Source: Escherichia coli (GTDB taxonomy: Bacteria; Pseudomonadota; Gammaproteobacteria; Enterobacterales; Enterobacteriaceae). From it: a stretch of DNA of 64,000 bases. The notes under the pieces are model-generated. The model saw only the letters and a list, made by a program, of their open reading frames with translations. It ran no database searches and had not been told where the DNA came from. The position numbers and the translations under genes are program-made. This document shows, in pieces, positions 1-52,066 of the stretch. Position 1 is the stretch's first letter; each line of letters opens with the position of its first letter. The stretch lies in assembly GCF_017348835.2 (NCBI RefSeq), contig NZ_CP071375.1; one strand, written 5' to 3'.

Positions 1-512
1 GCTCTGGCGACAGGTAACTGTGCCAGCCGCAGGGCATTCTGCCCGACTTCACTGCGACAACGCAGGGTCGGCGCAGCATCGCACGCTTTTTGCTGGGCAA
101 GCAGTTCTTCAACTGTCGTAACGCTTTTCACTTCAACTGGAATAGCCGCCAGACTGCGCTCAAGTCGGGCATCTCCTGGATGACGTTTCAGTTGATCCTC
201 AAGCAACAGCCGCGCCCGGTCATCATGACCAAAATGGCGATAGGCTTCCGCAAGGTATAAAGACAGCGGAATATTATCCGGCACCTGCTGGTGTATATAT
301 TCAAATTCGCGGATGGCGGTTGCTTCGTCGTTATTTTTCTGTGCCTTCAGCGCCTTATCGAGACGGGGATAAATAACAAAATGGCGATAATCGCTCAGCC
401 CCAGCTCTTCTGCGCTGGTGCCGATATTGTCTGCGAGTGCGCTGGTACTCAATAAAGACGTCAGCAGTAAACCAGACCATCCGATGACGCGATTAAGGTT
501 ATTCTCCTTCAT
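1..512 (-). CDS. nfrA: NfrA, phage N4 adsorption protein A; N-terminal part only, gene continues past the window start
   Basis: Reverse complement of 480-512 reads MKENNLNRVIG, starting 9 nt downstream of the nfrB stop; frame stays open to the window edge; product recognised by recall. Confidence 0.8.
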   Translation of the reverse strand, partial: MKENNLNRVIGWSGLLLTSLLSTSALADNIGTSAEELGLSDYRHFVIYPRLDKALKAQKNNDEATAIREFEYIHQQVPDNIPLSLYLAEAYRHFGHDDRARLLLEDQLKRHPGDARLERSLAAIPVEVKSVTTVEELLAQQKACDAAPTLRCRSEVGQNALRLAQLPVAR

Positions 513-2736
513 TTTCGGACTCCAGTTGCGCAACCTGTTCTGTGTTTAAACCTGCTTTGAGTAATAGTGATTGCATCGAAACTTGTAATTCGCGTTGAAT
601 TGTCAGGACGCGATCCAACGTTTCCTGGCTGATAACGCCTTCGGTGACCAAAAACTTGCCGAGCGGCAGAGAACTGCGTTCATGGCGCAATAACAACACG
701 TTAATTGCCGAACGATTAATATGACCGAGCGTGGTCAGTATTTCGGCGAACAGGAACTGATGCGGCACATATTGCCGCCAGATTTCACCGGCCTGCTGTT
801 CCGTGAGCCACTGATGCTGAACCGCATTGTACAACATTGCCCGCGGATCGTGACCGCGTCGGCGTGCATACCAGTGACGTAACCCCGTGACAATTTGTCC
901 CCGCAGAACAATGACGTAACGCACTTTGCGTCCGACTTTACGCGTCAGGGCCGCCAGCGAAACCGGGTCAATACCATCTTCACTGCCGACAATTAACTCA
1001 TCATTTTCCAGACGCAGCGGCAGTACCGCATAATGCAGCGCCACGGAGGGCGGCATTTCGGCAATCAGCGAGGAAGGGATCTGCCAGGCATCGATGGATT
1101 CCCACGCCACGCCGTTTTGCTCTGCCAGCGCCTGTGCCAGCTGCTCGGCGCTAATCAGCCCCTGCATCAGCATTGAACCGCCCAGGCGTAGACCTTCGAC
1201 GCGATTACGCAGTGCTGTATCGAGTTGTTCTTCAGTGATGACCTGATTTTCCAGCAGAATTTGACCTAACGGGCGCAACGAGCGGGTATCGCCAGTCACG
1301 CTGGGGAAGTCATGCGTTGTTTTATCCCACGCGACGCGACGTGGATCGCCGTGTTGAAGTACCTGTTTTAACGCGCGCCAGTTGGCCATGAAGTTAATCA
1401 GGTTGCCCCAGAAAAGACGCAGGACAGATAGTAGCCCCTGCGTCAGGCCGTAGTAGCCAGTGACGAAAATCACCCGCTGCACGATGCGGTTAACCATCAA
1501 GCCAAAGTTTAGCCACAGCAGGGTCATTAACCATGCGCTGCCGCTAAAAATAGAAAGGAAATGCCAGGCATCGGGCCACAAACTTTCATACGCCAGCAAC
1601 AGCAAAAGCTGGATCATCACCAGCATCGCGAGGAAGCTGACAAAGTTACTGATTGCCCCTTTGCGGTCGCGCCAGAGAAAGTAGTTCAGCGTCAGGCTGG
1701 AGGTCCATTTATGGGTTTTAAAGCCCTGGAAAACAATGCCGATGATCCAGCGGGATTTTTGTCGAACCGCAGTCGAAAAGGTATCGGGGAAATATTCGCG
1801 CACGCAGATCATGTTTGACGTCCGTGCGTGCTGTAAAAATTTACGCTGCTCGCGTTCTTTGGCTTCGTCCACCACCGGAAAACGGACAAAAATTTCCGTC
1901 ATACCTTTTTCTTTCAGGCGGAAGCCAATGTCGTAATCTTCAGTAAGACTCTGCACGTCGAAAGCAATACCGTCACCGTCAGCTAACAGTGCGGTCACGG
2001 CGCGGCGGCTGAAACAGGTGCCGACGCCTGCGCTGGGCACTTGTCCGGCGAGGGCTTCACGCACCGGAACATCTTTTCCATGCAGTTCTGAAAACTCATC
2101 AATGTAAGTCATGCTGGTGAAGTGCGTCCATTCGCGTTCGAACGGATACACCGGGATCTGAATCAGATCTTTACGCTCGACCAGATAGTTGAACAGACGC
2201 AACTCCATCGGTGAAATTACGTCTTCGGCGTCATGCAGAATAAAACCAGCAAAAGCGAAATTGGCGCTACGCTCAAATTGGGTGATGGCGTCCAGCACGT
2301 TGTTCAGACAGTCGGCTTTGCTGGTGGGGCCAGGACGCGCGCAGACTACCTTATGCACATTCGGGAAGCGAGCGCACACTTCGTCAACATCACGCTGAGT
2401 GTCCGGGTCGTTGGGGTAGGTGCCAACAAAGATATGATAGTTTTCGTAGTCGAGCGTGGTCGCCGCCAGCTCGGCCATATTGCCGATGACGCCCGTTTCA
2501 TTCCACGCCGGAACCATAATCGCTAACGGTTTTTCATCTGGTTTATACAGTTCGCGGTAACTCATTCGCGGGTAGCGGCGATAAACACTCAACTTGCGTT
2601 TAATGCGGCGTACCCAGTAGACGACATCAATAAAAAAATCGTCCAGCCCGCTGATGAACATGATGACCGCTAACGTTATCGCGATTACTTTTAAGCCATA
2701 GAGCCAGGTAGCAAAAACATCAAGAAGCCAGTCCAC
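499..2736 (-). CDS. nfrB: NfrB, membrane glycosyltransferase required for phage N4 adsorption
   Basis: 745-aa ORF with N-terminal TM helix and glycosyltransferase-like core; recognised by recall. Confidence 0.92.
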   Translation of the reverse strand: MDWLLDVFATWLYGLKVIAITLAVIMFISGLDDFFIDVVYWVRRIKRKLSVYRRYPRMSYRELYKPDEKPLAIMVPAWNETGVIGNMAELAATTLDYENYHIFVGTYPNDPDTQRDVDEVCARFPNVHKVVCARPGPTSKADCLNNVLDAITQFERSANFAFAGFILHDAEDVISPMELRLFNYLVERKDLIQIPVYPFEREWTHFTSMTYIDEFSELHGKDVPVREALAGQVPSAGVGTCFSRRAVTALLADGDGIAFDVQSLTEDYDIGFRLKEKGMTEIFVRFPVVDEAKEREQRKFLQHARTSNMICVREYFPDTFSTAVRQKSRWIIGIVFQGFKTHKWTSSLTLNYFLWRDRKGAISNFVSFLAMLVMIQLLLLLAYESLWPDAWHFLSIFSGSAWLMTLLWLNFGLMVNRIVQRVIFVTGYYGLTQGLLSVLRLFWGNLINFMANWRALKQVLQHGDPRRVAWDKTTHDFPSVTGDTRSLRPLGQILLENQVITEEQLDTALRNRVEGLRLGGSMLMQGLISAEQLAQALAEQNGVAWESIDAWQIPSSLIAEMPPSVALHYAVLPLRLENDELIVGSEDGIDPVSLAALTRKVGRKVRYVIVLRGQIVTGLRHWYARRRGHDPRAMLYNAVQHQWLTEQQAGEIWRQYVPHQFLFAEILTTLGHINRSAINVLLLRHERSSLPLGKFLVTEGVISQETLDRVLTIQRELQVSMQSLLLKAGLNTEQVAQLESENEGE

Positions 2737-2885
2737 ACAAAAACCTTACATTAACGCTGGTTATGTTTAGGGTGGCGTATATTAAGGTTTTTTATGAATT
2801 GTGACAGCTTTTTACCATTAATAGGTATGACTATTGCGGCACGTTATTTTTACACTGGTTATAAAAGTTGCCGTTTGCTGAAGGA

Positions 2886-4328
2886 TTAAGCGGGTAATGT
2901 GATAACAAACCTTGTCCCCCGCGCATTTGACGTAACCGCAACCGTGCCTTTATGCGCGACAACAATTGATTTCACTATCGCCAGCCCAATGCCGCTACCT
3001 TCGCCTTTTCGCTGGCGGGAGGGGTCAACGCGGTAGAAACGGTCAAACAATCGCGGTAAGTGTTCGGGCGCAATGGGCGTACCGGGGTTTTCGACGATAA
3101 CTTGCACCTGATGCTCGACCGTCTGGCAGCGCACTACAATAGCCTCACTGGGTGGCGTATAACGTAGGGCATTAGAAAGCAGGTTGCTTAACGCCCGACG
3201 CAGCATCAGCGGATCGCCCGCAACCTGACATTCGTCGCCAACAAATCGCAACTCCACGCCGCGATCTTCCGCTAACGCCTCGAAAAAATCGAACACTTTG
3301 CCGATTTCATCCGCCAGGTTGAGCATTTTCTTTTCGGGGATTAGCTGGTTGTTATCGGCCTGAGCGAGAAACAGCATATCGCTGACCATTTTCGCCATTC
3401 GCGTCAGCTCTTCGAGATTAGAGTAGAGCACATCTTCCAGTTCCTTCTGGCTGCGCGACTGGCTGAGGGCGATTTCCGTTTGCGTTATGAGATTAGTAAT
3501 TGGTGTGCGAATTTCGTGGGCGATATCCGCTGAGAAATTGGACTGGCGGGTAAAGACATCCTCAATACGCTCGATCATATGGTTGAACGACAGTACCAGC
3601 TGTTCCAGCTCAATGGGCACGGTCTGCGGGTCAAGGCGGACGTCGAGATCTTTCGAGGTGATATTCTGGATTTGACGGCTGACGCTGCGGATCGGCGCGT
3701 GACCTTTATGTACCGCCAACAGTACGATAAAGACGATTAGGATGCTGATTACCGATGCGGTCATAATAAGTTTATTCATCAAATCATTTATGTAATGAAG
3801 ATGAAAATCGATCGAAAGCGCGATGTAGAGCGTATAAATCGGTTTGCCGTCCACCAACGGGCCAACCGGCAAGTTAATCATCCGCCAGTTGCTGTGTTCC
3901 ATATGCCCGTGACCGTGGCCTGGCATCATCATCGTCGGGCCGGAAAGGAGATACACCTCGCCACCCTGAGCGTCTTTATCGGGTATGGCGTCACGCGTAA
4001 ACTCGCGGATATCCGGCGCACCGGGGGAGTGATACACCGTTTTACCCTGGCTATCTGCCAGGGAAATCAACACATTGGAATAACCACTGACGATATCTTC
4101 CAGCGTCATTAAGCGTCGGGCTTGCATTTCGTCAGGGTGATTTAGTACCCGTTCAAGGGTGGCGCTAATCTCTTTTAAATCATTAATATCCTGCTCGGCA
4201 AAATGCACTTTTACTGAGTGGATCATGATCCATGCAAAGGCGAAAAACGCCGCGATGGTGGCCAGGCTGATAAAAAAGGTCAGGCGGGTTGCCAGCGAAA
4301 ACGGGCGCTGAAATGGCTTACTGACCAT
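2886..4328 (-). CDS. cusS: CusS, copper/silver-sensing histidine kinase
   Basis: ORF 2886-4340; start taken at internal Met (MVSKPF...) giving 480 aa; [20 protein letters not shown] kinase motifs; 11-nt overlap with cusR. Confidence 0.9.
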
Positions 4329-5001
4329 CCGGCACCTCAAGCATGTAACCCACGCCGCGCACGGTTTGAATCAGCTTCGGCTCAAAGTCGTTGTCGATTT
4401 TGCCGCGTAGCCGCTTCACCGCCACATCAATGGCGTTAGTGTCGCTGTCGAAATTCATGTCCCATACCTGCGAGGCGATAAGCGAGCGGGGCAGCACTTC
4501 GCCCTGATGGCGAAGGAAAAACTCCAGCAGAGTAAATTCTTTACTGGTCAGAGTGATGCGCGTGCCGCTGCGGGTGACTTTGCGGCTGACGAGATCGACC
4601 ATCAGATCGGCAACCTGAAACTGACTTTCGATAATCACCGCCGCCCCGCGCCGCAGGAGAGTGCGCACCCGCGCCAGCAGTTCAGCAAAAGCGAATGGTT
4701 TCACCAGGTAGTCATCTGCCCCCAACTCCAGCCCCTTGACGCGATGTTCAATGGTGCCAAGCGCGGTAAGCAACAGAATCGGCATCCCTTTATTGGCGGA
4801 GCGCAACATGCGCACGATATCCCAGCCGTTCACGTCCGGCAGCATAATATCGAGGATTATCAGATCATAATCACCGGTCATCGCCAGATGGTAGCCATTC
4901 AGCCCGTTGTCGGCCAAATCGACCACAAAACCGGCTTCGGTTAACCCTTTGGTCAAGTATTCTCCGGTTTTCTTTTCATCTTCGACAATCAACAGTTTCA
5001 T
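4318..5001 (-). CDS. cusR: CusR, OmpR-family response regulator
   Basis: 227-aa [19 protein letters not shown] receiver domain plus winged-helix C-terminus. Confidence 0.93.
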
Positions 5002-5066
5002 ATTTCCTCCGCATGTTGCCCGGGCAATTCTAGAGTAGCGGGATCAGATGGCAATCGCTTATTGGC

Positions 5067-5088
5067 AAAATGACAATTTTGTCATTTT
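5067..5088. promoter_or_regulatory. CusR box: perfect palindrome AAAATGACAA-TT-TTGTCATTTT in the cusR / cusC divergent promoter
   Basis: Palindrome read directly at 5067-5088, placed between the divergent cusR and cusC starts. Confidence 0.8.
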
Positions 5089-5157
5089 CCTGTCACCGGA
5101 AAATCAGAGCCTGGCGAGTAAAGTTGGTGGTATAAAATCACCAGAAATTATCAGCCT

Positions 5158-6540
5158 ATGTCTCCTTGTAAACTTCTGCCATTTTGTGTGGCCCTTGCGC
5201 TAACCGGTTGTTCACTGGCACCGGATTATCAGCGCCCGGCAATGCCCGTGCCGCAGCAGTTCTCACTCAGCCAGAACGGCCTCGTTAACGCAGCAGATAA
5301 CTACCAGAACGCGGGCTGGCGCACCTTTTTTGTTGATAATCAGGTGAAGACGCTGATTAGCGAGGCGCTGGTGAATAACCGGGATTTGCGCATGGCGACG
5401 CTGAAAGTGCAGGAAGCGCGGGCGCAATATCGTCTGACCGATGCTGACCGCTACCCACAGCTCAATGGCGAGGGCAGCGGCAGCTGGAGCGGCAATCTTA
5501 AAGGCGATTCAGCCACGACGCGGGAGTTTTCTACTGGCCTTAACGCCAGCTTTGACCTCGATTTTTTCGGGCGCTTAAAGAACATGAGCGAAGCCGAGCG
5601 ACAAAATTATTTAGCCACTGAGGAAGCTCAGCGCGCGGTGCATATTCTGCTGGTTTCTAATGTCGCGCAAAGCTATTTCAATCAGCAGCTGGCGTATGCG
5701 CAATTGCAAATAGCCGAAGAAACGCTGCGTAATTATCAGCAGTCATATGCGTTTGTCGAAAAACAACTGTTGACAGGTAGCAGTAATGTTCTGGCGCTGG
5801 AACAGGCTCGCGGGGTGATTGAAAGTACCCGCAGCGACATCGCTAAACGTCAGGGGGAACTGGCGCAGGCGAATAATGCATTGCAACTGTTATTGGGAAG
5901 CTACGGCAAGCTGCCGCAAGCGCAGACAGTAAACGGCGGCAGTCTGCAAAGCGTTAAATTACCGGCGGGCTTGTCGTCGCAAATCTTATTGCAGCGCCCG
6001 GATATTATGGAAGCTGAACATGCGTTAATGGCGGCTAATGCCAATATTGGTGCTGCACGCGCGGCATTTTTCCCGTCTATCAGCCTGACCAGCGGAATAT
6101 CAACCGCCAGCAGCGATCTGTCGTCATTATTTAACGCCAGCAGCGGGATGTGGAATTTTATACCCAAAATTGAGATCCCCATTTTTAATGCCGGACGTAA
6201 CCAGGCCAATCTGGATATCGCCGAAATTCGCCAGCAGCAGTCGGTGGTGAATTATGAACAGAAAATCCAGAACGCCTTTAAAGAAGTGGCAGATGCGCTG
6301 GCATTACGTCAAAGCCTGAACGATCAAATTAGCGCCCAGCAGCGTTATCTGGCATCGCTGCAAATTACTTTGCAACGGGCGCGGGCATTATATCAGCACG
6401 GCGCAGTAAGTTATCTGGAAGTGCTGGATGCCGAGCGTTCTTTATTTGCAACCCGACAAACTTTACTTGACCTGAATTATGCCCGTCAGGTTAACGAAAT
6501 TTCTTTATATACCGCACTTGGTGGCGGTTGGCAGCAATAA
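5158..6540 (+). CDS. cusC: CusC, outer-membrane efflux channel lipoprotein
   Basis: 460-aa ORF with lipobox LTGCS near N-terminus; TolC/OprM-like. Confidence 0.92.
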   Translation: MSPCKLLPFCVALALTGCSLAPDYQRPAMPVPQQFSLSQNGLVNAADNYQNAGWRTFFVDNQVKTLISEALVNNRDLRMATLKVQEARAQYRLTDADRYPQLNGEGSGSWSGNLKGDSATTREFSTGLNASFDLDFFGRLKNMSEAERQNYLATEEAQRAVHILLVSNVAQSYFNQQLAYAQLQIAEETLRNYQQSYAFVEKQLLTGSSNVLALEQARGVIESTRSDIAKRQGELAQANNALQLLLGSYGKLPQAQTVNGGSLQSVKLPAGLSSQILLQRPDIMEAEHALMAANANIGAARAAFFPSISLTSGISTASSDLSSLFNASSGMWNFIPKIEIPIFNAGRNQANLDIAEIRQQQSVVNYEQKIQNAFKEVADALALRQSLNDQISAQQRYLASLQITLQRARALYQHGAVSYLEVLDAERSLFATRQTLLDLNYARQVNEISLYTALGGGWQQ

Positions 6541-6563
6541 CTTTTAACTCCAGGAGAGAATAA

Positions 6564-6896
6564 ATGAAAAAAGCACTGCAAGTCGCAATGTTCAGTCTGT
6601 TTACCGTTATTGGCTTTAATGCCCAGGCTAACGAACATCATCATGAAACCATGAGCGAAGCACAACCACAGGTTATTAGCGCCACTGGCGTGGTAAAAGG
6701 TGTTGATCTGGAAAGCAAAAAAATCACCATCCATCACGATCCGATTGCTGCCGTCAACTGGCCGGAGATGACCATGCGCTTTACCATCACCCCGCAGACG
6801 AAAATGAGTGAAATTAAAACCGGCGACAAAGTGGCGTTTAATTTTGTCCAGCAGGGCAACCTTTCTTTATTACAGGATATTAAAGTCAGCCAGTAA
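6564..6896 (+). CDS. cusF: CusF, periplasmic copper chaperone
   Basis: 110-aa ORF with signal peptide and His/Met-rich mature N-terminus; SD-like GGAGAG upstream. Confidence 0.92.
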   Translation: MKKALQVAMFSLFTVIGFNAQANEHHHETMSEAQPQVISATGVVKGVDLESKKITIHHDPIAAVNWPEMTMRFTITPQTKMSEIKTGDKVAFNFVQQGNLSLLQDIKVSQ

Positions 6897-6911
6897 CCCA
6901 GGTTTAATGAG

Positions 6912-8135
6912 ATGAAAAAAATCGCGCTTATTATCGGCAGCATGATCGCGGGCGGTATTATTTCTGCGGCAGGTTTTACCTGGTTTGCAAAGGCTGAACC
7001 ACCCGCAGAAAAAACATCGACCGCAGAACGTAAAATCTTATTCTGGTACGACCCTATGTATCCCAATACGCGGTTCGATAAACCAGGTAAATCGCCGTTT
7101 ATGGATATGGATCTGGTGCCGAAATATGCCGATGAAGAGAGTTCTGCGTCTGGTGTGCGCATTGACCCGACTCAGACGCAGAATCTGGGGGTGAAAACGG
7201 CTACCGTCACGCGCGGACCGCTGACTTTTGCCCAGAGTTTCCCGGCGAATGTCAGTTACAACGAGTATCAGTATGCCATTGTGCAGGCTCGCGCTGCCGG
7301 GTTTATCGACAAGGTGTATCCGCTTACCGTGGGCGATAAAGTACAAAAGGGCACACCGCTTCTCGACCTGACCATTCCTGACTGGGTGGAAGCGCAGAGT
7401 GAGTATTTACTGCTGCGCGAAACCGGCGGTACGGCGACCCAGACTGAAGGCATTCTTGAGCGGCTGCGACTGGCGGGAATGCCGGAGGCGGATATTCGCC
7501 GCCTGATCGCCACGCAAAAAATCCAGACTCGCTTTACGCTCAAAGCACCCATTGATGGCGTGATCACCGCGTTTGATCTGCGCGCGGGAATGAATATCGC
7601 CAAAGATAACGTGGTAGCGAAAATTCAGGGTATGGACCCGGTGTGGGTCACTGCTGCGATCCCGGAGTCTATCGCCTGGCTGGTGAAAGATGCCTCGCAG
7701 TTTACGCTCACCGTTCCGGCACGACCGGATAAAACACTCACCATCCGCAAATGGACGCTGCTACCCGGCGTGGATGCCGCGACCCGCACGCTGCAGCTGC
7801 GTCTGGAAGTCGACAACGCCGACGAGGCGCTAAAACCGGGCATGAACGCCTGGTTGCAACTCAATACCGCCAGCGAACCGATGCTGCTCATTCCGTCACA
7901 AGCGCTGATTGATACCGGCAGCGAACAGCGGGTGATTACCGTTGATGCCGACGGGCGCTTTGTACCGAAACGCGTTGCCGTTTTCCAGGCATCGCAAGGT
8001 GTCACCGCATTACGCTCTGGTCTGGCGGAAGGTGAAAAGGTGGTTTCCAGCGGCCTGTTCCTGATTGATTCCGAAGCCAATATTTCTGGCGCACTGGAGC
8101 GGATGCGCTCTGAAAGTGCTACCCATGCGCATTGA
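6912..8135 (+). CDS. cusB: CusB, membrane fusion protein of the Cus efflux pump
   Basis: 407-aa ORF directly after cusF; recognised by recall. Confidence 0.92.
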   Translation: MKKIALIIGSMIAGGIISAAGFTWFAKAEPPAEKTSTAERKILFWYDPMYPNTRFDKPGKSPFMDMDLVPKYADEESSASGVRIDPTQTQNLGVKTATVTRGPLTFAQSFPANVSYNEYQYAIVQARAAGFIDKVYPLTVGDKVQKGTPLLDLTIPDWVEAQSEYLLLRETGGTATQTEGILERLRLAGMPEADIRRLIATQKIQTRFTLKAPIDGVITAFDLRAGMNIAKDNVVAKIQGMDPVWVTAAIPESIAWLVKDASQFTLTVPARPDKTLTIRKWTLLPGVDAATRTLQLRLEVDNADEALKPGMNAWLQLNTASEPMLLIPSQALIDTGSEQRVITVDADGRFVPKRVAVFQASQGVTALRSGLAEGEKVVSSGLFLIDSEANISGALERMRSESATHAH

Positions 8136-8146
8136 GGGAATAACCA

Positions 8147-11100
8147 ATGATTGAATGGATTATTCGTCGCTCGGTGGCGAACCGTTTTCTGGTGCTGATG
8201 GGCGCGTTATTTCTGAGTATCTGGGGCACCTGGACCATCATTAACACGCCAGTGGATGCGTTGCCGGATCTCTCCGATGTGCAGGTGATTATTAAAACCA
8301 GCTATCCCGGTCAGGCACCGCAAATCGTTGAAAATCAGGTGACTTATCCGCTAACCACCACCATGTTGTCGGTGCCTGGCGCGAAGACTGTGCGTGGTTT
8401 CTCGCAGTTTGGCGACTCTTATGTGTATGTCATTTTCGAAGATGGCACCGATCCGTACTGGGCGCGCTCGCGGGTGCTGGAGTACCTCAACCAGGTACAG
8501 GGTAAGCTGCCTGCGGGAGTCAGCGCCGAGCTGGGGCCAGATGCCACGGGTGTTGGCTGGATCTATGAATATGCACTGGTGGATCGCAGCGGTAAGCACG
8601 ATCTTGCCGATTTACGCTCATTGCAGGACTGGTTTCTCAAATATGAGCTAAAAACCATCCCTGACGTTGCGGAAGTGGCGTCGGTGGGCGGTGTGGTGAA
8701 AGAGTATCAGGTGGTTATCGATCCTCAGCGCCTGGCGCAGTATGGCATCAGTCTCGGCGAAGTGAAAAATGCGCTGGATGCTTCAAACCAGGAAGCGGGC
8801 GGTTCGTCGATCGAACTGGCGGAAGCGGAATATATGGTGCGCGCCAGCGGCTATCTGCAAACGCTCGACGACTTTAATCACATCGTTTTAAAAGCCAGTG
8901 AAAATGGCGTGCCCGTTTATCTGCGTGATGTTGCGAAGGTCCAGGTTGGCCCGGAGATGCGCCGGGGCATTGCCGAACTGAACGGCGAAGGCGAAGTGGC
9001 AGGTGGGGTGGTGATCCTGCGCTCCGGCAAAAACGCCCGAGAAGTGATCGCCGCCGTGAAGGACAAACTGGAAACGCTGAAAAGTAGTCTGCCGGAAGGC
9101 GTGGAGATAGTTACAACATACGATCGCAGCCAGCTCATTGACCGCGCCATCGACAACCTCAGCGGCAAGTTGCTGGAAGAGTTTATTGTGGTGGCGGTAG
9201 TCTGTGCGCTGTTTCTCTGGCATGTGCGCTCGGCGCTGGTGGCGATTATTTCGTTGCCGCTGGGGTTGTGTATTGCTTTTATTGTCATGCACTTTCAGGG
9301 ACTGAACGCCAATATTATGTCGCTGGGCGGCATTGCGATTGCCGTCGGGGCGATGGTCGATGCCGCTATCGTCATGATCGAGAATGCGCATAAACGGCTG
9401 GAAGAGTGGCAGCACCAGCATCCTGACGCCACGCTGGATAATAAAACGCGCTGGCAGGTGATCACCGATGCGTCTGTTGAAGTGGGTCCGGCGTTGTTTA
9501 TCAGTCTGCTGATTATCACGTTGTCGTTTATCCCGATCTTCACCCTGGAAGGGCAGGAAGGGCGTCTGTTTGGCCCGCTGGCGTTCACTAAAACCTATGC
9601 GATGGCGGGCGCGGCGCTGCTGGCGATCGTAGTGATCCCGATCCTGATGGGCTACTGGATCCGTGGCAAAATTCCGCCGGAAAGCAGTAACCCGCTCAAT
9701 CGCTTTTTGATTCGTGTTTATCATCCGCTATTGCTGAAAGTACTGCACTGGCCGAAAACCACGCTGTTGGTGGCCGCGCTTTCGGTGCTGACGGTTCTCT
9801 GGCCGCTCAATAAAGTTGGCGGGGAATTTTTACCGCAGATCAATGAAGGCGACTTGTTGTATATGCCATCGACGCTGCCGGGGATTTCCGCAGCAGAGGC
9901 GGCGAGTATGCTGCAAAAAACCGACAAGCTAATTATGAGCGTACCTGAAGTGGCGCGGGTATTTGGCAAAACCGGGAAAGCGGAAACCGCCACCGATTCT
10001 GCTCCGCTGGAGATGGTAGAAACGACCATCCAGCTTAAGCCGCAGGAGCAGTGGCGGCCAGGCATGACGATGGACAAAATCATTGAGGAACTGGATAACA
10101 CCGTGCGTCTGCCGGGGCTGGCGAATCTGTGGGTGCCGCCAATTCGTAACCGTATCGATATGCTCTCGACCGGCATTAAAAGCCCCATCGGCATTAAAGT
10201 TTCCGGCACTGTGCTGGCGGATATCGACGCGATGGCGGAGCAAATTGAAGAGGTGGCACGAACGGTGCCAGGCGTGGCTTCTGCTCTAGCCGAGCGTCTG
10301 GAAGGTGGGCGCTATATCAACGTTGAGATTAACCGTGAAAAAGCCGCGCGTTACGGTATGACGGTGGCAGATGTGCAGTTGTTTGTGACTTCTGCTGTGG
10401 GCGGGGCGATGGTTGGCGAAACGGTGGAAGGAATTGCCCGTTATCCAATTAATCTGCGTTATCCGCAAAGCTGGCGCGATAGTCCGCAGGCACTGCGCCA
10501 GCTGCCGATTCTGACGCCGATGAAGCAGCAAATCACCCTGGCAGACGTGGCCGACGTTAAAGTCTCTACCGGACCGTCGATGCTGAAAACCGAGAATGCG
10601 CGCCCGACGAGCTGGATTTATATCGATGCCCGCGATCGTGACATGGTGTCGGTGGTTCACGATTTGCAAAAAGCGATAGCTGAAAAAGTGCAGTTAAAAC
10701 CGGGCACCAGCGTGGCATTCTCCGGGCAGTTCGAGCTACTGGAGCGCGCCAACCATAAGCTGAAACTCATGGTGCCGATGACACTGATGATCATCTTCGT
10801 GCTGTTGTATCTGGCATTCCGTCGGGTGGGCGAAGCGTTGCTGATTATCAGCAGCGTACCGTTTGCGCTGGTGGGCGGCATCTGGTTGCTGTGGTGGATG
10901 GGCTTTCATCTTTCTGTGGCGACGGGCACTGGCTTTATTGCCCTTGCCGGGGTTGCTGCCGAATTTGGCGTGGTGATGCTGATGTATTTACGTCACGCCA
11001 TAGAGGCCGAGCCGTCGTTGAATAATCCGCAAACATTCAGCGAGCAGAAGCTGGATGAGGCGTTGTATCACGGCGCGGTTCTGCGCGTGCGCCCGAAAGC

Positions 11101-11290
11101 GATGACGGTGGCGGTGATTATCGCCGGTTTGCTGCCGATTCTGTGGGGAACGGGGGCTGGTTCAGAGGTGATGAGCCGGATTGCCGCGCCGATGATTGGC
11201 GGCATGATCACCGCGCCTTTGCTGTCGCTGTTTATTATCCCGGCGGCGTATAAGCTGATGTGGCTGCACCGACATCGGGTACGGAAATAA
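8147..11290 (+). CDS. cusA: CusA, RND-type inner-membrane copper/silver efflux pump
   Basis: 1047-aa ORF, 12-TM RND architecture; recognised by recall. Confidence 0.95.
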
Positions 11291-11391
11291 AAGCAGGATA
11301 CCCCGTTTAACCGTGTGGATTGTGTCTTGCGACGATGGGCACTAAATGTTAAAAGGTGCCCCTCAACAAAAAAGACACACAGGGGAAAGGC

Positions 11392-12768
11392 GTGAAAAAC
11401 GCGTCAACCGTATCGGAAGATACTGCGTCGAATCAAGAGCCGACGCTTCATCGCGGATTACATAACCGTCATATTCAACTGATTGCGCTGGGTGGCGCAA
11501 TTGGTACTGGTCTGTTTCTTGGCATTGGCCCAGCGATTCAGATGGCGGGTCCGGCTGTATTGCTGGGCTACGGCGTCGCCGGGATCATCGCTTTCCTGAT
11601 TATGCGCCAGCTCGGCGAGATGGTGGTCGAAGAGCCGGTATCCGGTTCATTTGCCCACTTTGCCTATAAATACTGGGGACCGTTTGCAGGCTTCCTCTCT
11701 GGCTGGAATTACTGGGTGATGTTCGTGCTGGTGGGAATGGCAGAGCTGACCGCTGCGGGCATCTATATGCAGTACTGGTTCCCGGATGTTCCAACGTGGA
11801 TTTGGGCTGCCGCCTTCTTTATTATCATCAACGCCGTTAACCTGGTGAACGTGCGCTTATATGGCGAAACGGAGTTCTGGTTCGCGCTGATTAAAGTGCT
11901 GGCAATCATCGGCATGATCGGTTTTGGCCTGTGGCTGCTGTTTTCTGGGCACGGTGGCGAGAAAGCCAGTATCGACAACCTCTGGCGCTACGGCGGTTTC
12001 TTCGCCACCGGCTGGAATGGGCTGATTTTGTCGCTGGCGGTAATTATGTTCTCCTTCGGCGGTCTGGAGCTGATTGGGATTACTGCCGCTGAAGCGCGCG
12101 ATCCGGAAAAAAGCATTCCAAAAGCGGTAAATCAGGTGGTGTATCGCATCCTGCTGTTTTACATCGGTTCACTGGTGGTTTTACTGGCGCTCTATCCGTG
12201 GGTGGAAGTGAAATCCAACAGTAGCCCGTTTGTGATGATTTTCCATAATCTCGACAGCAACGTGGTAGCTTCTGCGCTGAACTTCGTCATTCTGGTAGCA
12301 TCGCTGTCGGTGTATAACAGCGGGGTTTACTCTAACAGCCGCATGCTGTTTGGCCTTTCTGTGCAGGGTAATGCGCCGAAGTTCCTTACCCGTGTTAGCC
12401 GTCGCGGCGTGCCGATTAACTCGCTGATGCTTTCCGGAGCGATCACTTCGCTGGTGGTGTTAATCAACTATCTGCTGCCGCAAAAAGCGTTTGGTCTGCT
12501 GATGGCGCTGGTGGTAGCAACGCTGCTGTTGAACTGGATTATGATCTGCCTGGCGCATCTGCGTTTTCGCGCGGCGATGCGACGTCAGGGACGTGAAACA
12601 CAGTTTAAGGCGCTGCTTTATCCGTTCGGCAACTATCTTTGCATTGCCTTCCTCGGCATGATTTTGCTGCTGATGTGCACGATGGATGATATGCGCTTGT
12701 CAGCGATCCTGCTGCCGGTGTGGATTGTATTCCTGTTTGTGGCATTTAAAACGCTGCGTCGGAAATAA
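11392..12768 (+). CDS. pheP: PheP, phenylalanine-specific permease (APC family)
   Basis: ORF 11356-12768; likely GTG start at 11392 (MKNASTVSED...) giving 458 aa. Confidence 0.9.
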   Translation: MKNASTVSEDTASNQEPTLHRGLHNRHIQLIALGGAIGTGLFLGIGPAIQMAGPAVLLGYGVAGIIAFLIMRQLGEMVVEEPVSGSFAHFAYKYWGPFAGFLSGWNYWVMFVLVGMAELTAAGIYMQYWFPDVPTWIWAAAFFIIINAVNLVNVRLYGETEFWFALIKVLAIIGMIGFGLWLLFSGHGGEKASIDNLWRYGGFFATGWNGLILSLAVIMFSFGGLELIGITAAEARDPEKSIPKAVNQVVYRILLFYIGSLVVLLALYPWVEVKSNSSPFVMIFHNLDSNVVASALNFVILVASLSVYNSGVYSNSRMLFGLSVQGNAPKFLTRVSRRGVPINSLMLSGAITSLVVLINYLLPQKAFGLLMALVVATLLLNWIMICLAHLRFRAAMRRQGRETQFKALLYPFGNYLCIAFLGMILLLMCTMDDMRLSAILLPVWIVFLFVAFKTLRRK

Positions 12769-12799
12769 GGCATTCACGCTACATCCGACAAAACGATGT

Positions 12800-12833
12800 C
12801 CGCTCTCATCCATTCGATGAGAGCGGTTTTTTT
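12800..12833 (+). terminator. Rho-independent terminator of pheP
   Basis: Hairpin CCGCTCTCATC / GATGAGAGCGG followed by TTTTTTT, read directly. Confidence 0.75.
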
Positions 12834-12835
12834 AA

Positions 12836-14131
<1,296 letters not shown>

Positions 14132-14163
14132 TTATGCAAATCAGGAGAATCTGAGGGGAAATA

Positions 14164-14181
14164 GCCGGGCAGATGCCCGGC
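14164..14181 (-). terminator. GC-rich hairpin just downstream of nfsB (possible terminator; weak U-tract)
   Basis: GCCGGGC-AGAT-GCCCGGC perfect 7-bp stem read directly. Confidence 0.4.
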
Positions 14182-14190
14182 AAGAGAGAA

Positions 14191-14844
14191 TTACACTTCG
14201 GTTAAGGTGATGTTTTGCGGCAGACGAGATTTCGGCAGCGTAGCGTTAAAATCTTCAACGCTGTGATGACCTACCGGAACAACCACCAGACTGGTGTAGC
14301 CTTTCTCTTTCAGACCAAATTCTGCATCGAGGATGGCGGCGTCAAAACCTTCGATGGGTACCGCGTCCAGACCCAGAGCCGCCACGCCGAGCAGGAAGTT
14401 ACCGACGTTGAGATAAACCTGTTTTGCCATCCACTCTGCATCATCATGCAGATCTTTACGGTGCATATCAGCGAAGAACTTGCGACCTTTATCGTTCGCG
14501 GCTTTCGCTTCCGGCGTGGCAAAGCGGCCATCAGCATCTTCCTGGTCAACAACCAGCTTCAGCCAGGCATCGTCCATCGCGGTTTTTGCACAGAACACCA
14601 CGACGTGCGAGGCATCAAGTATTTTACGTTCGTTGAACACATAATTACCGGCAGCGGATTTGGCAACACGCGCTTTACCTTCTTCCGTGCTGGCAACAAT
14701 AAAATGCCACGGCTGGGAGTTGGTGCTGGATGGGCTGTATTGCAGTAGCGTTTTGATCTGCTCGGCCTGTTCCGGGGTAAGTTTTTTGCTGGCATCAAAT
14801 GCCTTAGTGGAATGACGCTTTAAGGCGACAGAAATGATATCCAT
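14191..14844 (-). CDS. nfsB: NfsB, oxygen-insensitive NAD(P)H nitroreductase
   Basis: ORF 14191-14895; start taken at [17 protein letters not shown] giving 217 aa. Confidence 0.93.
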
Positions 14845-14937
14845 AAAGACTCCATGTGAAAGTAATTTTGCGTGCCAGCAGATTACAAGGTTCAACGAGA
14901 AATGGTAAGCGAGAAAAATGCGCTATAGATTTCCGCT

Positions 14938-15306
14938 TTAGCCTGGACGCACTCTTTTTTGATCGCGTTTAGCCAGACCATCAACCACCAGATTCCACGA
15001 ATCGTTGATCAGATCGCGAAGTAACGCTTCGGAGATTTCCTCGCCGGGATACACCGAAATCCAGTGCTTTTTATTCATGTGATACCCTGGCTTAATGCTT
15101 GGGTATATTTGCTGATTTAACAGGGATTTTTGTGGATCGGACTTCAGATTGATAAAGGGGACGCCGCGTAGCTCCGACGACAGCATAAAAATCTTGCCGC
15201 CAATTTTAAAAACATCGAACTCCGGGCCAAAAGGCCAGCAAAGCTCGACAAAGGGTAACTCAAGGGCCAGGCGTTTCGCCGTTTCGTGCAGTGATTGCTT
15301 ATCCAT
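14938..15306 (-). CDS. ybdF: YbdF, small conserved protein of unknown function
   Basis: ORF 14938-15426; start taken at [14 protein letters not shown] giving 122 aa. Confidence 0.8.
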
Positions 15307-15370
15307 AAACGTTCCTTTAGGCGAAGGAGAATAAGCAAAGTATGCCGCGAAGTACGGCGATAATCGACGT

Positions 15371-15619
15371 TTAATCCGCCAGCGAGAACCAGCGTCGCCA
15401 GATAAAGCGCAGAACAAAATACTCAATAGCGCCCAGCACTAAAAACCACAGACAAAACAATAAAGTGTAAAGCTGACTAAGATCCATCAGATGGAACGTG
15501 GTCACCAGTTTTTGTGCCAGCGTCAGCCCCAGTGCGGGGGCGGGCAGCAGCAGGCAAGAGAGGAAAGCCATCAGCAAAATGCCTGCTGCGGTGGTCAAGG
15601 TTTCTAAAGGGTGTTTCAT
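15371..15619 (-). CDS. ybdJ: YbdJ, small inner-membrane protein
   Basis: 82-aa ORF with two hydrophobic helices. Confidence 0.8.
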
Positions 15620-15684
15620 AACATTGTTAAATGTAAGTTAAAACACCATTGTCAGGGATATTCTTCTGTAAGGCAATTCCCGGC

Positions 15685-16812
<1,128 letters not shown>

Positions 16813-17098
16813 TTATGTTGGCGTTTTCTATTCAGTATAGAAGTGGGAGCGGCCAGGCGAGATGCGGAAGTTCTGGAATGTTTCTTTTTTTGGTGATGGT
16901 GACTGAAGCAATTTGGCTACTTTTGCAATGTGACAAGTTATGGCACGGCTGGCTGGTGGCGAAGAATTTTGATGATTGGGGCGCGCAGAATAAAACTGGC
17001 TCAGCTTCAGTTGATCAAATGAGGAGTGAGAAGTCCGAAACAAGACTCACTGTATAAATAAACAGCTATTTTATTGAGGAAGGGTAAGATAACGGCGG

Positions 17099-17332
17099 GT
17101 GCCTGAAGCTTTCCGGTTTCAGGTTAACTCTGAGGTCTGGAAAGATGAAGCCCCAGGAGATATTTCTATCAACCCTGGGGCTACCTACCCAAACCTGAAC
17201 AATTTGGATGGTAGTCCCTTCTTCGCATGGAGGCAATATAAACATGCTGACGAAATATGCCCTTGTGGCAGTCATAGTGCTGTGTTTGACAGTGCTGGGA
17301 TTTACGCTTCTGGTCGGAGACTCGTTGTGTGA
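17099..17332 (+). CDS. mokE: Possible mokE, the overlapping reading frame that couples hokE translation; start codon uncertain
   Basis: Open frame in a different phase overlapping the hokE start, as in hok/mok loci; the annotated start at 17099 is GTG and lies close to the likely mRNA 5' end. Confidence 0.3.
17125..17200 (-). ncRNA. sokE: Expected position of the sokE antisense RNA (boundaries approximate)
   Basis: Inferred only from hok/sok family architecture (antisense to the mok leader upstream of hok); no promoter or terminator pinned down. Confidence 0.3.
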
Positions 17333-17396
17333 GTTTACGGTGAAGGAACGTAATATTGAGTTCAGGGCTGTTCTCGCTTACGAACCGAAGAAGTAG
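17244..17396 (+). CDS. hokE: HokE, type I toxin (small membrane-depolarising peptide)
   Basis: ATG at 17244; 50 aa [50 protein letters not shown], typical Hok TM helix plus conserved C-terminus. Confidence 0.9.
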
Positions 17397-17402
17397 CCGT
17401 TG

Positions 17403-17496
17403 TGCGGGGAGCAATCCCCGCATATCCGGTTGTCAGGTCAGAGTGGTAAGGCACCTGCTTTACACTTTCGCCCGCAGTCAGTGATGGCTGCGGGCG
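17403..17496. other. Two perfect hairpins downstream of hokE (hok mRNA 3' fold-back region / entD 3' end); the first carries a GGGG-N6-CCCC motif
   Basis: TGCGGGG-agcaat-CCCCGCA at 17403-17422 and CGCCCGCAG-N10-CTGCGGGCG at 17469-17496, read directly; neither has a clear U-tract. Confidence 0.6.
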
Positions 17497-18174: not shown

Positions 18175-18275
18175 TGCCTGATGCGCTACGCTTATCAGGC
18201 CTACGTGGTCCTGCAATATATTGAATTGGCAAGATTTTTGTAGGCCGGATAAGGCGTTCACGCCGCATCCGGCAT
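18175..18275. repeat. REP/BIME-type palindromic repeats between entD and fepA
   Basis: GCCTGATGCGCTACGCTTATCAGGCCTAC and GTAGGCCGGATAAGGCGTTCACGCCGCATCCGGCA, typical REP palindromic units. Confidence 0.8.
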
Positions 18276-35566: not shown

Positions 35567-36423
35567 ATGGCTATTCCAAAATTACAGGCTTACGCATTGC
35601 CGGAGTCTCACGATATTCCACAGAATAAAGTCGATTGGGCCTTTGAACCGCAACGTGCCGCGTTGTTAATCCATGATATGCAGGACTATTTTGTCAGCTT
35701 CTGGGGCGAGAACTGCCCGATGATGGAGCAGGTGATCGCGAATATTGCTGCGCTGCGCGACTACTGTAAACAGCACAATATTCCGGTTTATTACACCGCC
35801 CAGCCGAAAGAGCAGAGCGATGAAGATCGGGCGCTGTTGAATGATATGTGGGGGCCGGGCCTGACCCGCTCGCCGGAACAGCAAAAGGTGGTGGATCGCC
35901 TGACGCCAGATGCCGACGACACGGTGCTGGTGAAGTGGCGCTACAGCGCGTTTCATCGTTCTCCGCTGGAGCAAATGCTCAAAGAGAGTGGACGTAACCA
36001 GCTGATTATTACAGGGGTATATGCCCACATTGGCTGTATGACCACCGCAACCGGCGCATTTATGCGCGATATTAAACCGTTTATGGTGGCGGATGCGCTG
36101 GCCGATTTCAGCCGTGACGAGCATTTGATGTCGCTGAAATATGTAGCCGGACGTTCTGGCCGGGTGGTGATGACCGAAGAATTACTGCCAGCACCTATCC
36201 CCGCCAGCAAAGCGGCGCTGCGTGAGGTGATCCTGCCGTTGCTGGACGAGTCCGATGAACCGTTCGATGACGACAACCTGATCGACTACGGTCTGGATTC
36301 GGTGCGCATGATGGCGCTGGCGGCGCGCTGGCGCAAAGTGCATGGCGATATCGACTTTGTCATGCTGGCGAAAAACCCGACCATCGACGCCTGGTGGAAG
36401 CTACTCTCCCGCGAGGTGAAATA

Positions 36424-46443: not shown

Positions 46444-46726
46444 TAATTTGTCCTTTTCAGTCAGTGCAAAAGTCGAGTAAAAGGCATAACCTATCACTGT
46501 CATAGGTAAGAGCTTAGATCAGGTGATTGCCCTTTGTTTATGAGGGTGTTGTAATCCATGTCGTTGTTGCATTTGTAAGGGCAACACCTCAGCCTGCAGG
46601 CAGGCGCTGAAGATACCAAAGGGTAGTTCAGATTACACGGTCACCTGGAAAGGGGGCCATTTTACTTTTTATCGCCGCTGGCGGTGCAAAGTTCACAAAG
46701 TTGTCTTACGAAGGTTGTAAGGTAAA

Positions 46727-51837: not shown

Positions 51838-52066
51838 TTTTACTCCATGTCGTCGGTACTGCGAGTGTCGCAGATAAACATACCCAAAAGAAAACCCTCA
51901 CCGTCAGGCGGCGAGGGTTTAACTCACATGATGATACTGACTGTTGCTCACTCTTTGAAGTGATTTGCGTCACATTCAGGGAATTCCTCAATGCAGCGCA
52001 TTATGTATAAATCTTAATCGCCTTGGTTTATGGAAGACGAATTAGCGTGTTTTGTAAATCAGAGGA

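Follow-up and report, generated by a model that had tools for sequence, protein, structure and literature searches.

The 22-bp inverted repeat between cusR and cusC in the window (the whole stretch of Escherichia coli DNA that was analysed, 64,000 nucleotides) is almost certainly the CusR box, i.e. the operator of the E. coli CusS/CusR copper/silver two-component system, binding having been reported in the literature for the identical K-12 sequence. The box was already known, and its observation in itself adds nothing new. Comparison with related loci suggests a wider reading, in which we place about as much belief as doubt: the palindrome would be the upstream part of a directional operator-promoter module of ~58 bp, with one inverted half-site (H1) and two to three direct half-sites (H2, H3 and possibly one more) in 11-bp phase, locked 48 bp from the −10 element. 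The layout of this module is shared by the E. coli cus, sil, pco and hiuH loci and is kept as far as Pseudomonas and Betaproteobacteria. We computed the sequence, position, uniqueness, conservation and geometry of the site, and evidence for binding and copper activation was taken from the literature.

Identity and conservation of the CusR box

The product of the regulator gene matched NCBIfam equivalog NF007346 with 508 bits (cutoff 420), and all six cus genes scored above the curated NCBIfam cutoffs in equivalog and subfamily matches. These identities agree with the RefSeq annotation of the near-identical strain PE164. The cus genes are flanked by nfrB upstream and pheP downstream. Read directly from the window, the 22-mer is AAAATGACAATTTTGTCATTTT, identical to the published CusR box AAAATGACAAnnTTGTCATTTT, which was defined by Yamamoto & Ishihama 2005 and is quoted in PMC11195947. 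The earlier note's assignment of a CusR box between cusR and cusC is borne out by this identity and by the flanking cusRS and cusCFBA genes. Coordinates of the features are collected in Table 1.

Table 1. Features of the cusR–cusC region and other annotated elements of the window
Feature	Position	Strand	Remarks
CusR box	5067..5088	.	AAAATGACAA-TT-TTGTCATTTT; two perfect 10-nt arms, 2-nt centre; equals the published box
H1	5071..5075	−	TGACA on +, TGTCA on −; faces cusR; T(G/T)ACA conserved in 18/22 CusR-homologue upstream regions
H2	5080..5084	+	TGTCA; faces cusC
H3	5091..5095	+	TGTCA; lies beyond the palindrome, at exactly +11 from H2
pho-box-like direct repeat, H2+H3	5080..5097	+	TGTCATTTTCCTGTCACC; published PhoB ChIP-seq site; K-12 has T at 5089
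Element in the +22 slot	5102..5109	+	AATCAGAG; AA[A/T]CAGAG at cusC, silC and pcoE; AAACAGAA at silE
Inferred cusC −35 slot	5096..5101	+	CCGGAA; poor consensus match, 17 bp upstream of −10
Inferred cusC −10	5119..5124	+	TAAAGT; 48 bp from H1 start; same offset in related loci
Extended −10-like element	5128..5136	+	TGGTATAAA; created by the rare T5128
cusR promoter −35	5049..5054	−	TTGCCA; promoter scan; PcusR −35 labelled here in PMC9725139 S1
cusR promoter −10	5027..5032	−	TAGAAT; 16-bp spacer, 10/12 consensus match
cusR, response regulator	4318..5001	−	NCBIfam; RefSeq
cusS, sensor kinase	2886..4328	−	RefSeq start; mechanical ORF reaches 4340
cusCFBA operon	5158..11290	+	cusC 5158–6540, cusF 6564–6896, cusB 6912–8135, cusA 8147–11290
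ES036 (CssrF) sRNA	18197–18238	−	Rfam gathering score
STnc70 sRNA	46577–46670	+	Rfam gathering score
rnk leader	51883–51991	−	Rfam gathering score

An inverted-repeat search returned two arms of 10 nt apiece (5067–5076 and 5079–5088) that are 100% complementary across a 2-nt gap. The central TT (5077–5078) is non-complementary, so that 20 of the 22 positions are symmetric. The description of the site as a perfect 22-bp palindrome therefore holds for its sequence, coordinates and arms but not for its centre; the form is that of a 10+2+10 inverted repeat, matching the nn centre with which the CusR box is written in the literature. The cusR–cusC spacer (5002–5157) is 156 bp long, bounded by the cusR start codon ending at 5001 and the cusC ATG at 5158. 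Its midpoint is 5079.5 and the box centre lies 2 bp away at 5077.5, in agreement with the claim that the box is centred in the divergent cusRS/cusCFBA promoter.

This is the sole perfect inverted repeat in the 64-kb window whose arms reach 10 nt or more around a spacer of 0–4 nt. First-order Markov simulations of 64 kb yielded 0.5 such repeats on average, so that the mere presence of one in the window is unremarkable; the expectation for one falling inside this 156-bp spacer is ~0.001. The pre-specified published 20-base pattern AAAATGACAANNTTGTCATTTT matched 5067–5088 with 0 mismatches and was unique in the window even when up to 3 mismatches were allowed (0.01 matches expected). What makes the site significant is where it stands in the spacer and that it reproduces a pre-specified motif exactly, not the bare palindrome. 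No further copy of the box was found in the 64-kb window; two core matches with 2 mismatches (at 35683 and 46693) are at chance level (~2.4 expected).

The statement that the box is known biology is accurate: it was published in 2005, and footprinting, ChIP-chip, gSELEX and Reg-Seq have since confirmed it. In PMC9725139 S1 the K-12 sequence given as the CusR site footprinted with DNase I is the same, with the PcusR and PcusC −35 elements flanking it. In vivo ChIP-chip gave one CusR peak genome-wide, at the cusR–cusC spacer (bioRxiv 2020.08.17.251918). In gSELEX a single peak at this spacer was obtained with unphosphorylated CusR and likewise with its paralogue HprR, and in the presence of acetyl phosphate nine high-level CusR peaks were obtained, that at the cusR/cusC spacer included (PMC8249747). 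The nine peaks mean that the box is not the sole possible CusR target. At the cusC promoter Reg-Seq detected an activation footprint that depends on copper, and in reporter studies copper induction of this promoter needed CusRS, with none in its absence (PMC8966772). The box is useful as an unambiguous positive control when two-component operators are to be recognised from sequence alone.

In K-12 the 22-mer, the spacer and the distances to both start codons are identical to those of the window save for four spacer positions outside the box (window/K-12: 5089 C/T, 5128 T/C, 5131 T/C and 5152 C/G). For an 18-mer whose centre lies 1 bp further right than that of the box, Yang 2012 gave −77.5 and −79.5.

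The cusR–cusC spacer is present in 5333 of 5426 complete E. coli genomes. For the 43-mer at 5058–5100, the window allele was identical in 3335 records and the K-12 allele, with T at 5089, was found in 1769. Together 5104 of 5334 records carry one of these two alleles, which differ only at 5089 and leave the box intact, and in none of the 5334 do mismatches to the 43-mer of the window exceed 2. The box is essentially invariant in >5000 genomes, and neighbouring spacer positions vary. Position 5089 separates H2 from H3 and falls within the PhoB site; most E. coli records have C there, the T of K-12 being the minority allele. The most divergent record is E. coli N96 from a Tibetan pig (box AAAATGACAGTATTGTCATTTT), in which changes at the equivalents of 5076 (the innermost arm base) and 5078 (the centre) break the symmetry of the 10-nt arms. 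These inner positions also differ in Citrobacter and sil. The core that stays unchanged across the natural variants is ATGACA-N4-TGTCAT, with a variable A/T pair at arm position 10.

A beef isolate, E. coli O19:H7 730V1, carries IS903B at the equivalent of ~5110, where it separates the CusR operator from the −10 region of cusC, and ISKpn26 inside cusC; the efflux operon of this strain has thus lost the link to its operator and is itself interrupted. The window itself is identical to pig strain PE164 over positions 1–17418, with 5 mismatches across the next ~45 kb. PE164 has a 1348-bp IS4-like IS421 insertion beside hokE/sok (~17418) that is absent from the window, where an Rfam match to sok lies at 17097–17252. 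Among the matches listed, only 3 of the 5423 matching E. coli records share at least 99% identity with the window over the 24-kb enterobactin ent/fep/fes region (20000–44000). The remaining ones reach at most 98.4%, O55:H7 strains being among the nearest. This pattern indicates that the window comes from a rarely sequenced lineage.

Copper boxes at related loci

We compared at least 80 loci encoding CusR homologues, the matches listed including one enterobacterial orthologue (Citrobacter). The region ≤300 bp upstream of each regulator gene was searched for a degenerate box, T[GT][AT]CA[AT]NN[AT]TG[AT][AC]A, allowing ≤1 mismatch. Among the matches listed, it was present in 18 of 22 homologues with at least 58% identity to CusR and in only 7 of 57 more distant ones. 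Its density was 2.88 matches/kb upstream of the regulator genes vs 0.126/kb in the rest of the loci (~23-fold). The divergent neighbours encode, by Pfam, CusF-like proteins, multicopper oxidases, cupredoxins, DUF2933 proteins, outer-membrane efflux proteins, HMA domains, HIUase/transthyretin and HbpS-like proteins. The box in the window shares the hallmarks of this copper-box class: an inverted T(G/T)ACA-N4-TGT(A/C)A upstream of the regulator gene, beside a divergent copper-handling gene. In a Janthinobacterium MAG (L023) a CusR-like regulator gene with a copper box is divergent to a HIUase/transthyretin gene, and at two further loci, L024 (assigned by Pfam) and L037 (judged by eye), the divergent gene is HbpS-like. 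The regulators of these three loci are 55–60% identical to CusR, and the pairings show that the hprR–hiuH type of arrangement also occurs outside Enterobacteria.

Closer to the window, the Citrobacter werkmanii cusR–cusC spacer contains the CusR box with one change. On a sil/pco plasmid, the silC–silR spacer has ATAATGACAATGTTGTCATTTT, with 1 mismatch to the CusR box, and core copies are found upstream of silE (TAAATGACAAAGATGTCATTAG) and of the gene in the pcoE position (ATGATGACAATTTTGTCACCTT); a further box, TGACATAAATGTAA, precedes pcoA. All four share the TGACA-N4-TGTCA core of the CusR box. The silC, silE and pcoE boxes also resemble that of cusC in having a third half-site, an AAACAGAG-like element (AAACAGAA at silE) and a 48-bp distance to the −10 element. 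The sil/pco boxes differ from cus in the flanking A/T runs and the inner spacer, and the −10 elements of silE and pcoE are the consensus TATAAT. The pcoA region departs from the +11/+48 layout of cusC, silC, silE and pcoE: on plasmid p027_SK3a (~8530–8581) it has two palindromes ~28 bp apart, TGACATAAATGTAA and a second, hiuH-like box, TTACACAATTGTAA.

The K-12 hprR–hiuH spacer has a TTACAAAATTGTAA version of the box, matching the published HprR/CusR box. This site (CATTACAAAATTGTAATG) is, like that of cus, a palindrome with a 4-nt centre, followed by TGTAA at +11 and TATCCT at +48, but its half-sites are TTACA/TGTAA instead of TGACA/TGTCA. HprR affinity was reported to be lower there than at the cus spacer (PMC8249747). 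More distantly, the Pseudomonas CusR/CopR/CzcR palindrome ATTCATnnATGTAAT (PMC11195947) also occupies a divergent spacer between regulator and copper operon and is also a target of several paralogous response regulators. It differs from cus in its half-site letters, and identity between its regulator and the CusR of E. coli is ~70%.

A third half-site and the geometry of the two promoters

From the right arm onward the window reads TTGTCAT-TTTC-CTGTCAC (5079–5096), placing H3 in the same orientation as H2. Among the matches listed, an exact TGTCA at +11 from H2 on the structural-gene side was found in 9 of 22 box-bearing loci, and at least 4 of the 5 letters in 13 of 22. At other offsets TGTCA occurred a mean of 0.36 times among the same 22 loci, and at the mirrored, regulator-side position in only 2 of 22, so that no consistent mirrored third half-site was found among the 22 listed. 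Loci with H3 belong to at least seven lineages (Citrobacter, Pseudomonas, Amphritea, Vogesella, Gallionellaceae, Rhodocyclaceae and a gammaproteobacterial MAG). H3 is also present at silC and silE, with TGTAA at hiuH and a 4/5 near-match, AGTCA, at pcoE. The element in the +22 slot is a possible degenerate fourth half-site on the strength of its position and recurrence; no AA[A/T]CAGAG-like element was found at +22 in hiuH. The three-half-site idea is only hinted at in PMC9725139 S1, a supplement from the Stock laboratory. According to it, there may be a further half-site downstream, the head-to-head arrangement is atypical of the OmpR family, and SELEX points to head-to-tail binding by phosphorylated CusR.

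A second inverted repeat (5084–5093/5095–5104, ATTTTCCTGT/ACCGGAAAAT, 9/10 complementary with a 1-nt gap) shares bases with the right arm and with H3. In K-12 its complementarity drops to 8/10, and it is unconserved in sil and Citrobacter, so that it is probably incidental.

Distances from the start of H1 to the −10 element were also compared. The hexamer 48 bp after the start of H1 is TAAAGT at cusC, Citrobacter cusC and silC, TATAAT at silE and pcoE, and TATCCT at hiuH. A −10-like hexamer stands at offset 48 in 12 of 22 homologous loci and at offset 47 in 2 more, no other offset exceeding 2 among the matches listed. The box thus stands at a fixed spacing to its target promoter, as is characteristic of the copper boxes, and this fixed offset makes TAAAGT the likely cusC −10. 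H3 abuts the inferred −35 slot, and PMC9725139 S1 labels the PcusC −35 just to the right of the box. On this geometry cusC transcription would start near 5131, which would put the box centre near −53.5, the centre of H2–H3 near −42.5 and H3 near −38. On the other side, cusR transcription would start near 5020, with the box centre near −57.5. No published transcription start site for cusC or cusR was found in the biosensor and Reg-Seq literature or, for cusC, the Salmonella literature, so that −53.5 and −57.5 are inferred values. Another candidate for the native cusC −10, TATAAAAT at 5131–5138, was dropped in view of the fixed-offset hexamer shared by cus, sil, pco, hiuH and 12 of the 22 loci.

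No conserved −10 geometry was found on the regulator side among the homologous loci listed. Autoinduction of the cusR promoter is reported to be only ~five-fold. Conservation of geometry on the structural-gene side only fits the literature, in which cusC is activator-dependent and cusR modestly autoinduced. The earlier note had presented the site as a two-component operator readable directly from the sequence. As an operator it was correctly identified; it does not appear to be a self-contained symmetric one, however, as H3 and the fixed promoter geometry would make it directional toward cusC.

Two changes downstream of the inferred −10 give the window a rare haplotype in the core promoter and 5'UTR of cusC. 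At 5128 it has T where other strains have C; combined with T5131, which is common although K-12 has C, this produces TGGTATAAA, which matches the extended −10 consensus TGnTATAAT at 8 of 9 positions. The inferred native −10 is 12 bp upstream of this element. At 5152, 6 nt ahead of the cusC ATG, the window has C instead of the G found elsewhere. The whole 181-nt spacer sequence is matched by only 4 of 5334 records: PE164 and ZH177 from pigs, F2_81 from Sus scrofa and NN5 from water. The human strain BKQ37E has T5128 but G5152. As PE164 and F2_81 belong to the same lineage as the window, the association with pigs may be clonal. The T5128/C5152 allele might raise CusR-independent expression of cusCFBA.

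Competing readings and proposed mechanism

The same DNA could be primarily an operator of PhoB (or HprR) with CusR as a secondary ligand, the palindrome being a by-product of overlapping pho-box-type repeats. We regard this as very unlikely. PhoB is reported to bind here: the ChIP-seq site of Fitzgerald et al. (PMC10294691 Table 1) is an 18-mer, TGTCATTTTTCTGTCACC in K-12, deletion of phoB lowered cusC expression from 208 to 50 (PMC10294691), and an earlier ChIP-chip study placed a PhoB motif on the CusR box itself, with EMSA and reporter effects. These binding and expression reports concern the K-12 allele, and the window has C instead of T at 5089. The highest HprR gSELEX peak is likewise at the cusR–cusC spacer (PMC8249747). 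In sequence, 5079–5096 has the two direct CTGTCAT-like repeats with an 11-bp period of a pho box, H2–H3 matching the pho box CTGTCATAWAWCTGTCAY, itself a direct TGTCA repeat in 11-bp phase, at 6/7 and 7/7 positions. A classical pho box lies ~10 bp upstream of the −10 element, replacing the −35. H2–H3 does not take up this position: it reaches to 5097 and leaves 21 bp to the inferred −10, one helical turn (11 bp) more than in the classical arrangement, and only the H3/H4 slots would fill the classical place. It is also preceded by the inverted H1, which has no counterpart in pho boxes and would have no role in a pure pho-box reading, yet is conserved as much as H2. Moreover, the box tracks CusR-family regulator genes across Proteobacteria and adjoins copper rather than phosphate genes, and copper induction of cusC needs CusRS (PMC8966772).

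Action of the inverted repeat through nucleic-acid structure, as a cruciform, hairpin or terminator, is extremely improbable. Single-stranded DNA folds of 5060–5110 were somewhat more stable than those of shuffled sequences (z = −2.6 and −2.2), but they reach only −7.7 kcal/mol with AT-rich stems, and a search for a GC-rich stem followed by a T-run gave 0 terminator-like sites. The region is upstream of both inferred promoters and so is probably untranscribed. Conservation follows the TGACA/TGTCA letters and the spacing to the −10 element rather than pairing, and the inner pair varies without compensation in N96, Citrobacter and sil. A chance palindrome in an AT-rich spacer has a practically negligible probability: despite the ~0.5 perfect repeats with 10-nt arms expected per 64 kb, this one matches a pre-specified published 20-base motif exactly, is near-invariant in >5000 genomes and recurs at paralogous and orthologous loci, and chance is refuted by this conservation.

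We therefore return to the CusR operator. In the mechanism that we propose, CusS would sense periplasmic Cu(I)/Ag(I) and phosphorylate CusR, an OmpR/PhoB-family winged-helix protein, which would then bind the box and activate two divergent sigma-70 promoters. CusR dimers on the operator would recruit RNA polymerase to the cusC promoter, which appears to have no usable −35 and would be activator-dependent, and would modestly boost the cusR promoter, whose near-consensus elements (TTGCCA, 16 bp, TAGAAT) fit basal activity with modest autoinduction. The functional unit would extend beyond the 22-mer to H3, one helical turn past the right arm, giving an inverted pair, H1–H2, and a direct pair, H2–H3, toward cusC. 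It is the TGTCA half-site that would let the same DNA also be bound by HprR and, via H2–H3, by PhoB. Here we infer the start sites, the occupied half-sites and the orientation of binding. A PDB search found no structure of CusR or of a CusR–DNA complex, the closest hits being DrrD (1kgs) and the DNA-binding domain of PcoR (2jzy).

Should H3 be functional, activation of the structural promoter by regulators of the CusR family would take place head-to-tail on H2–H3, in the canonical OmpR/PhoB mode, and the head-to-head pair H1–H2 would be a high-affinity or phosphorylation-independent anchor serving autoregulation. Such an arrangement would explain both the strongly asymmetric output from a symmetric site and the cross-binding of PhoB. 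The comparison gives a likely −10 element and start for cusC without experiments, offers a testable answer to the use of a head-to-head site by an OmpR-family regulator, and would account for CusR, HprR and PhoB converging on one 30-bp stretch. Many copper biosensors are built on the promoters of cus, sil and pco, and resistance to silver and copper depends on these systems. For these reasons the full operator, beyond the 22-mer, would matter in the design of decoys and reporters.
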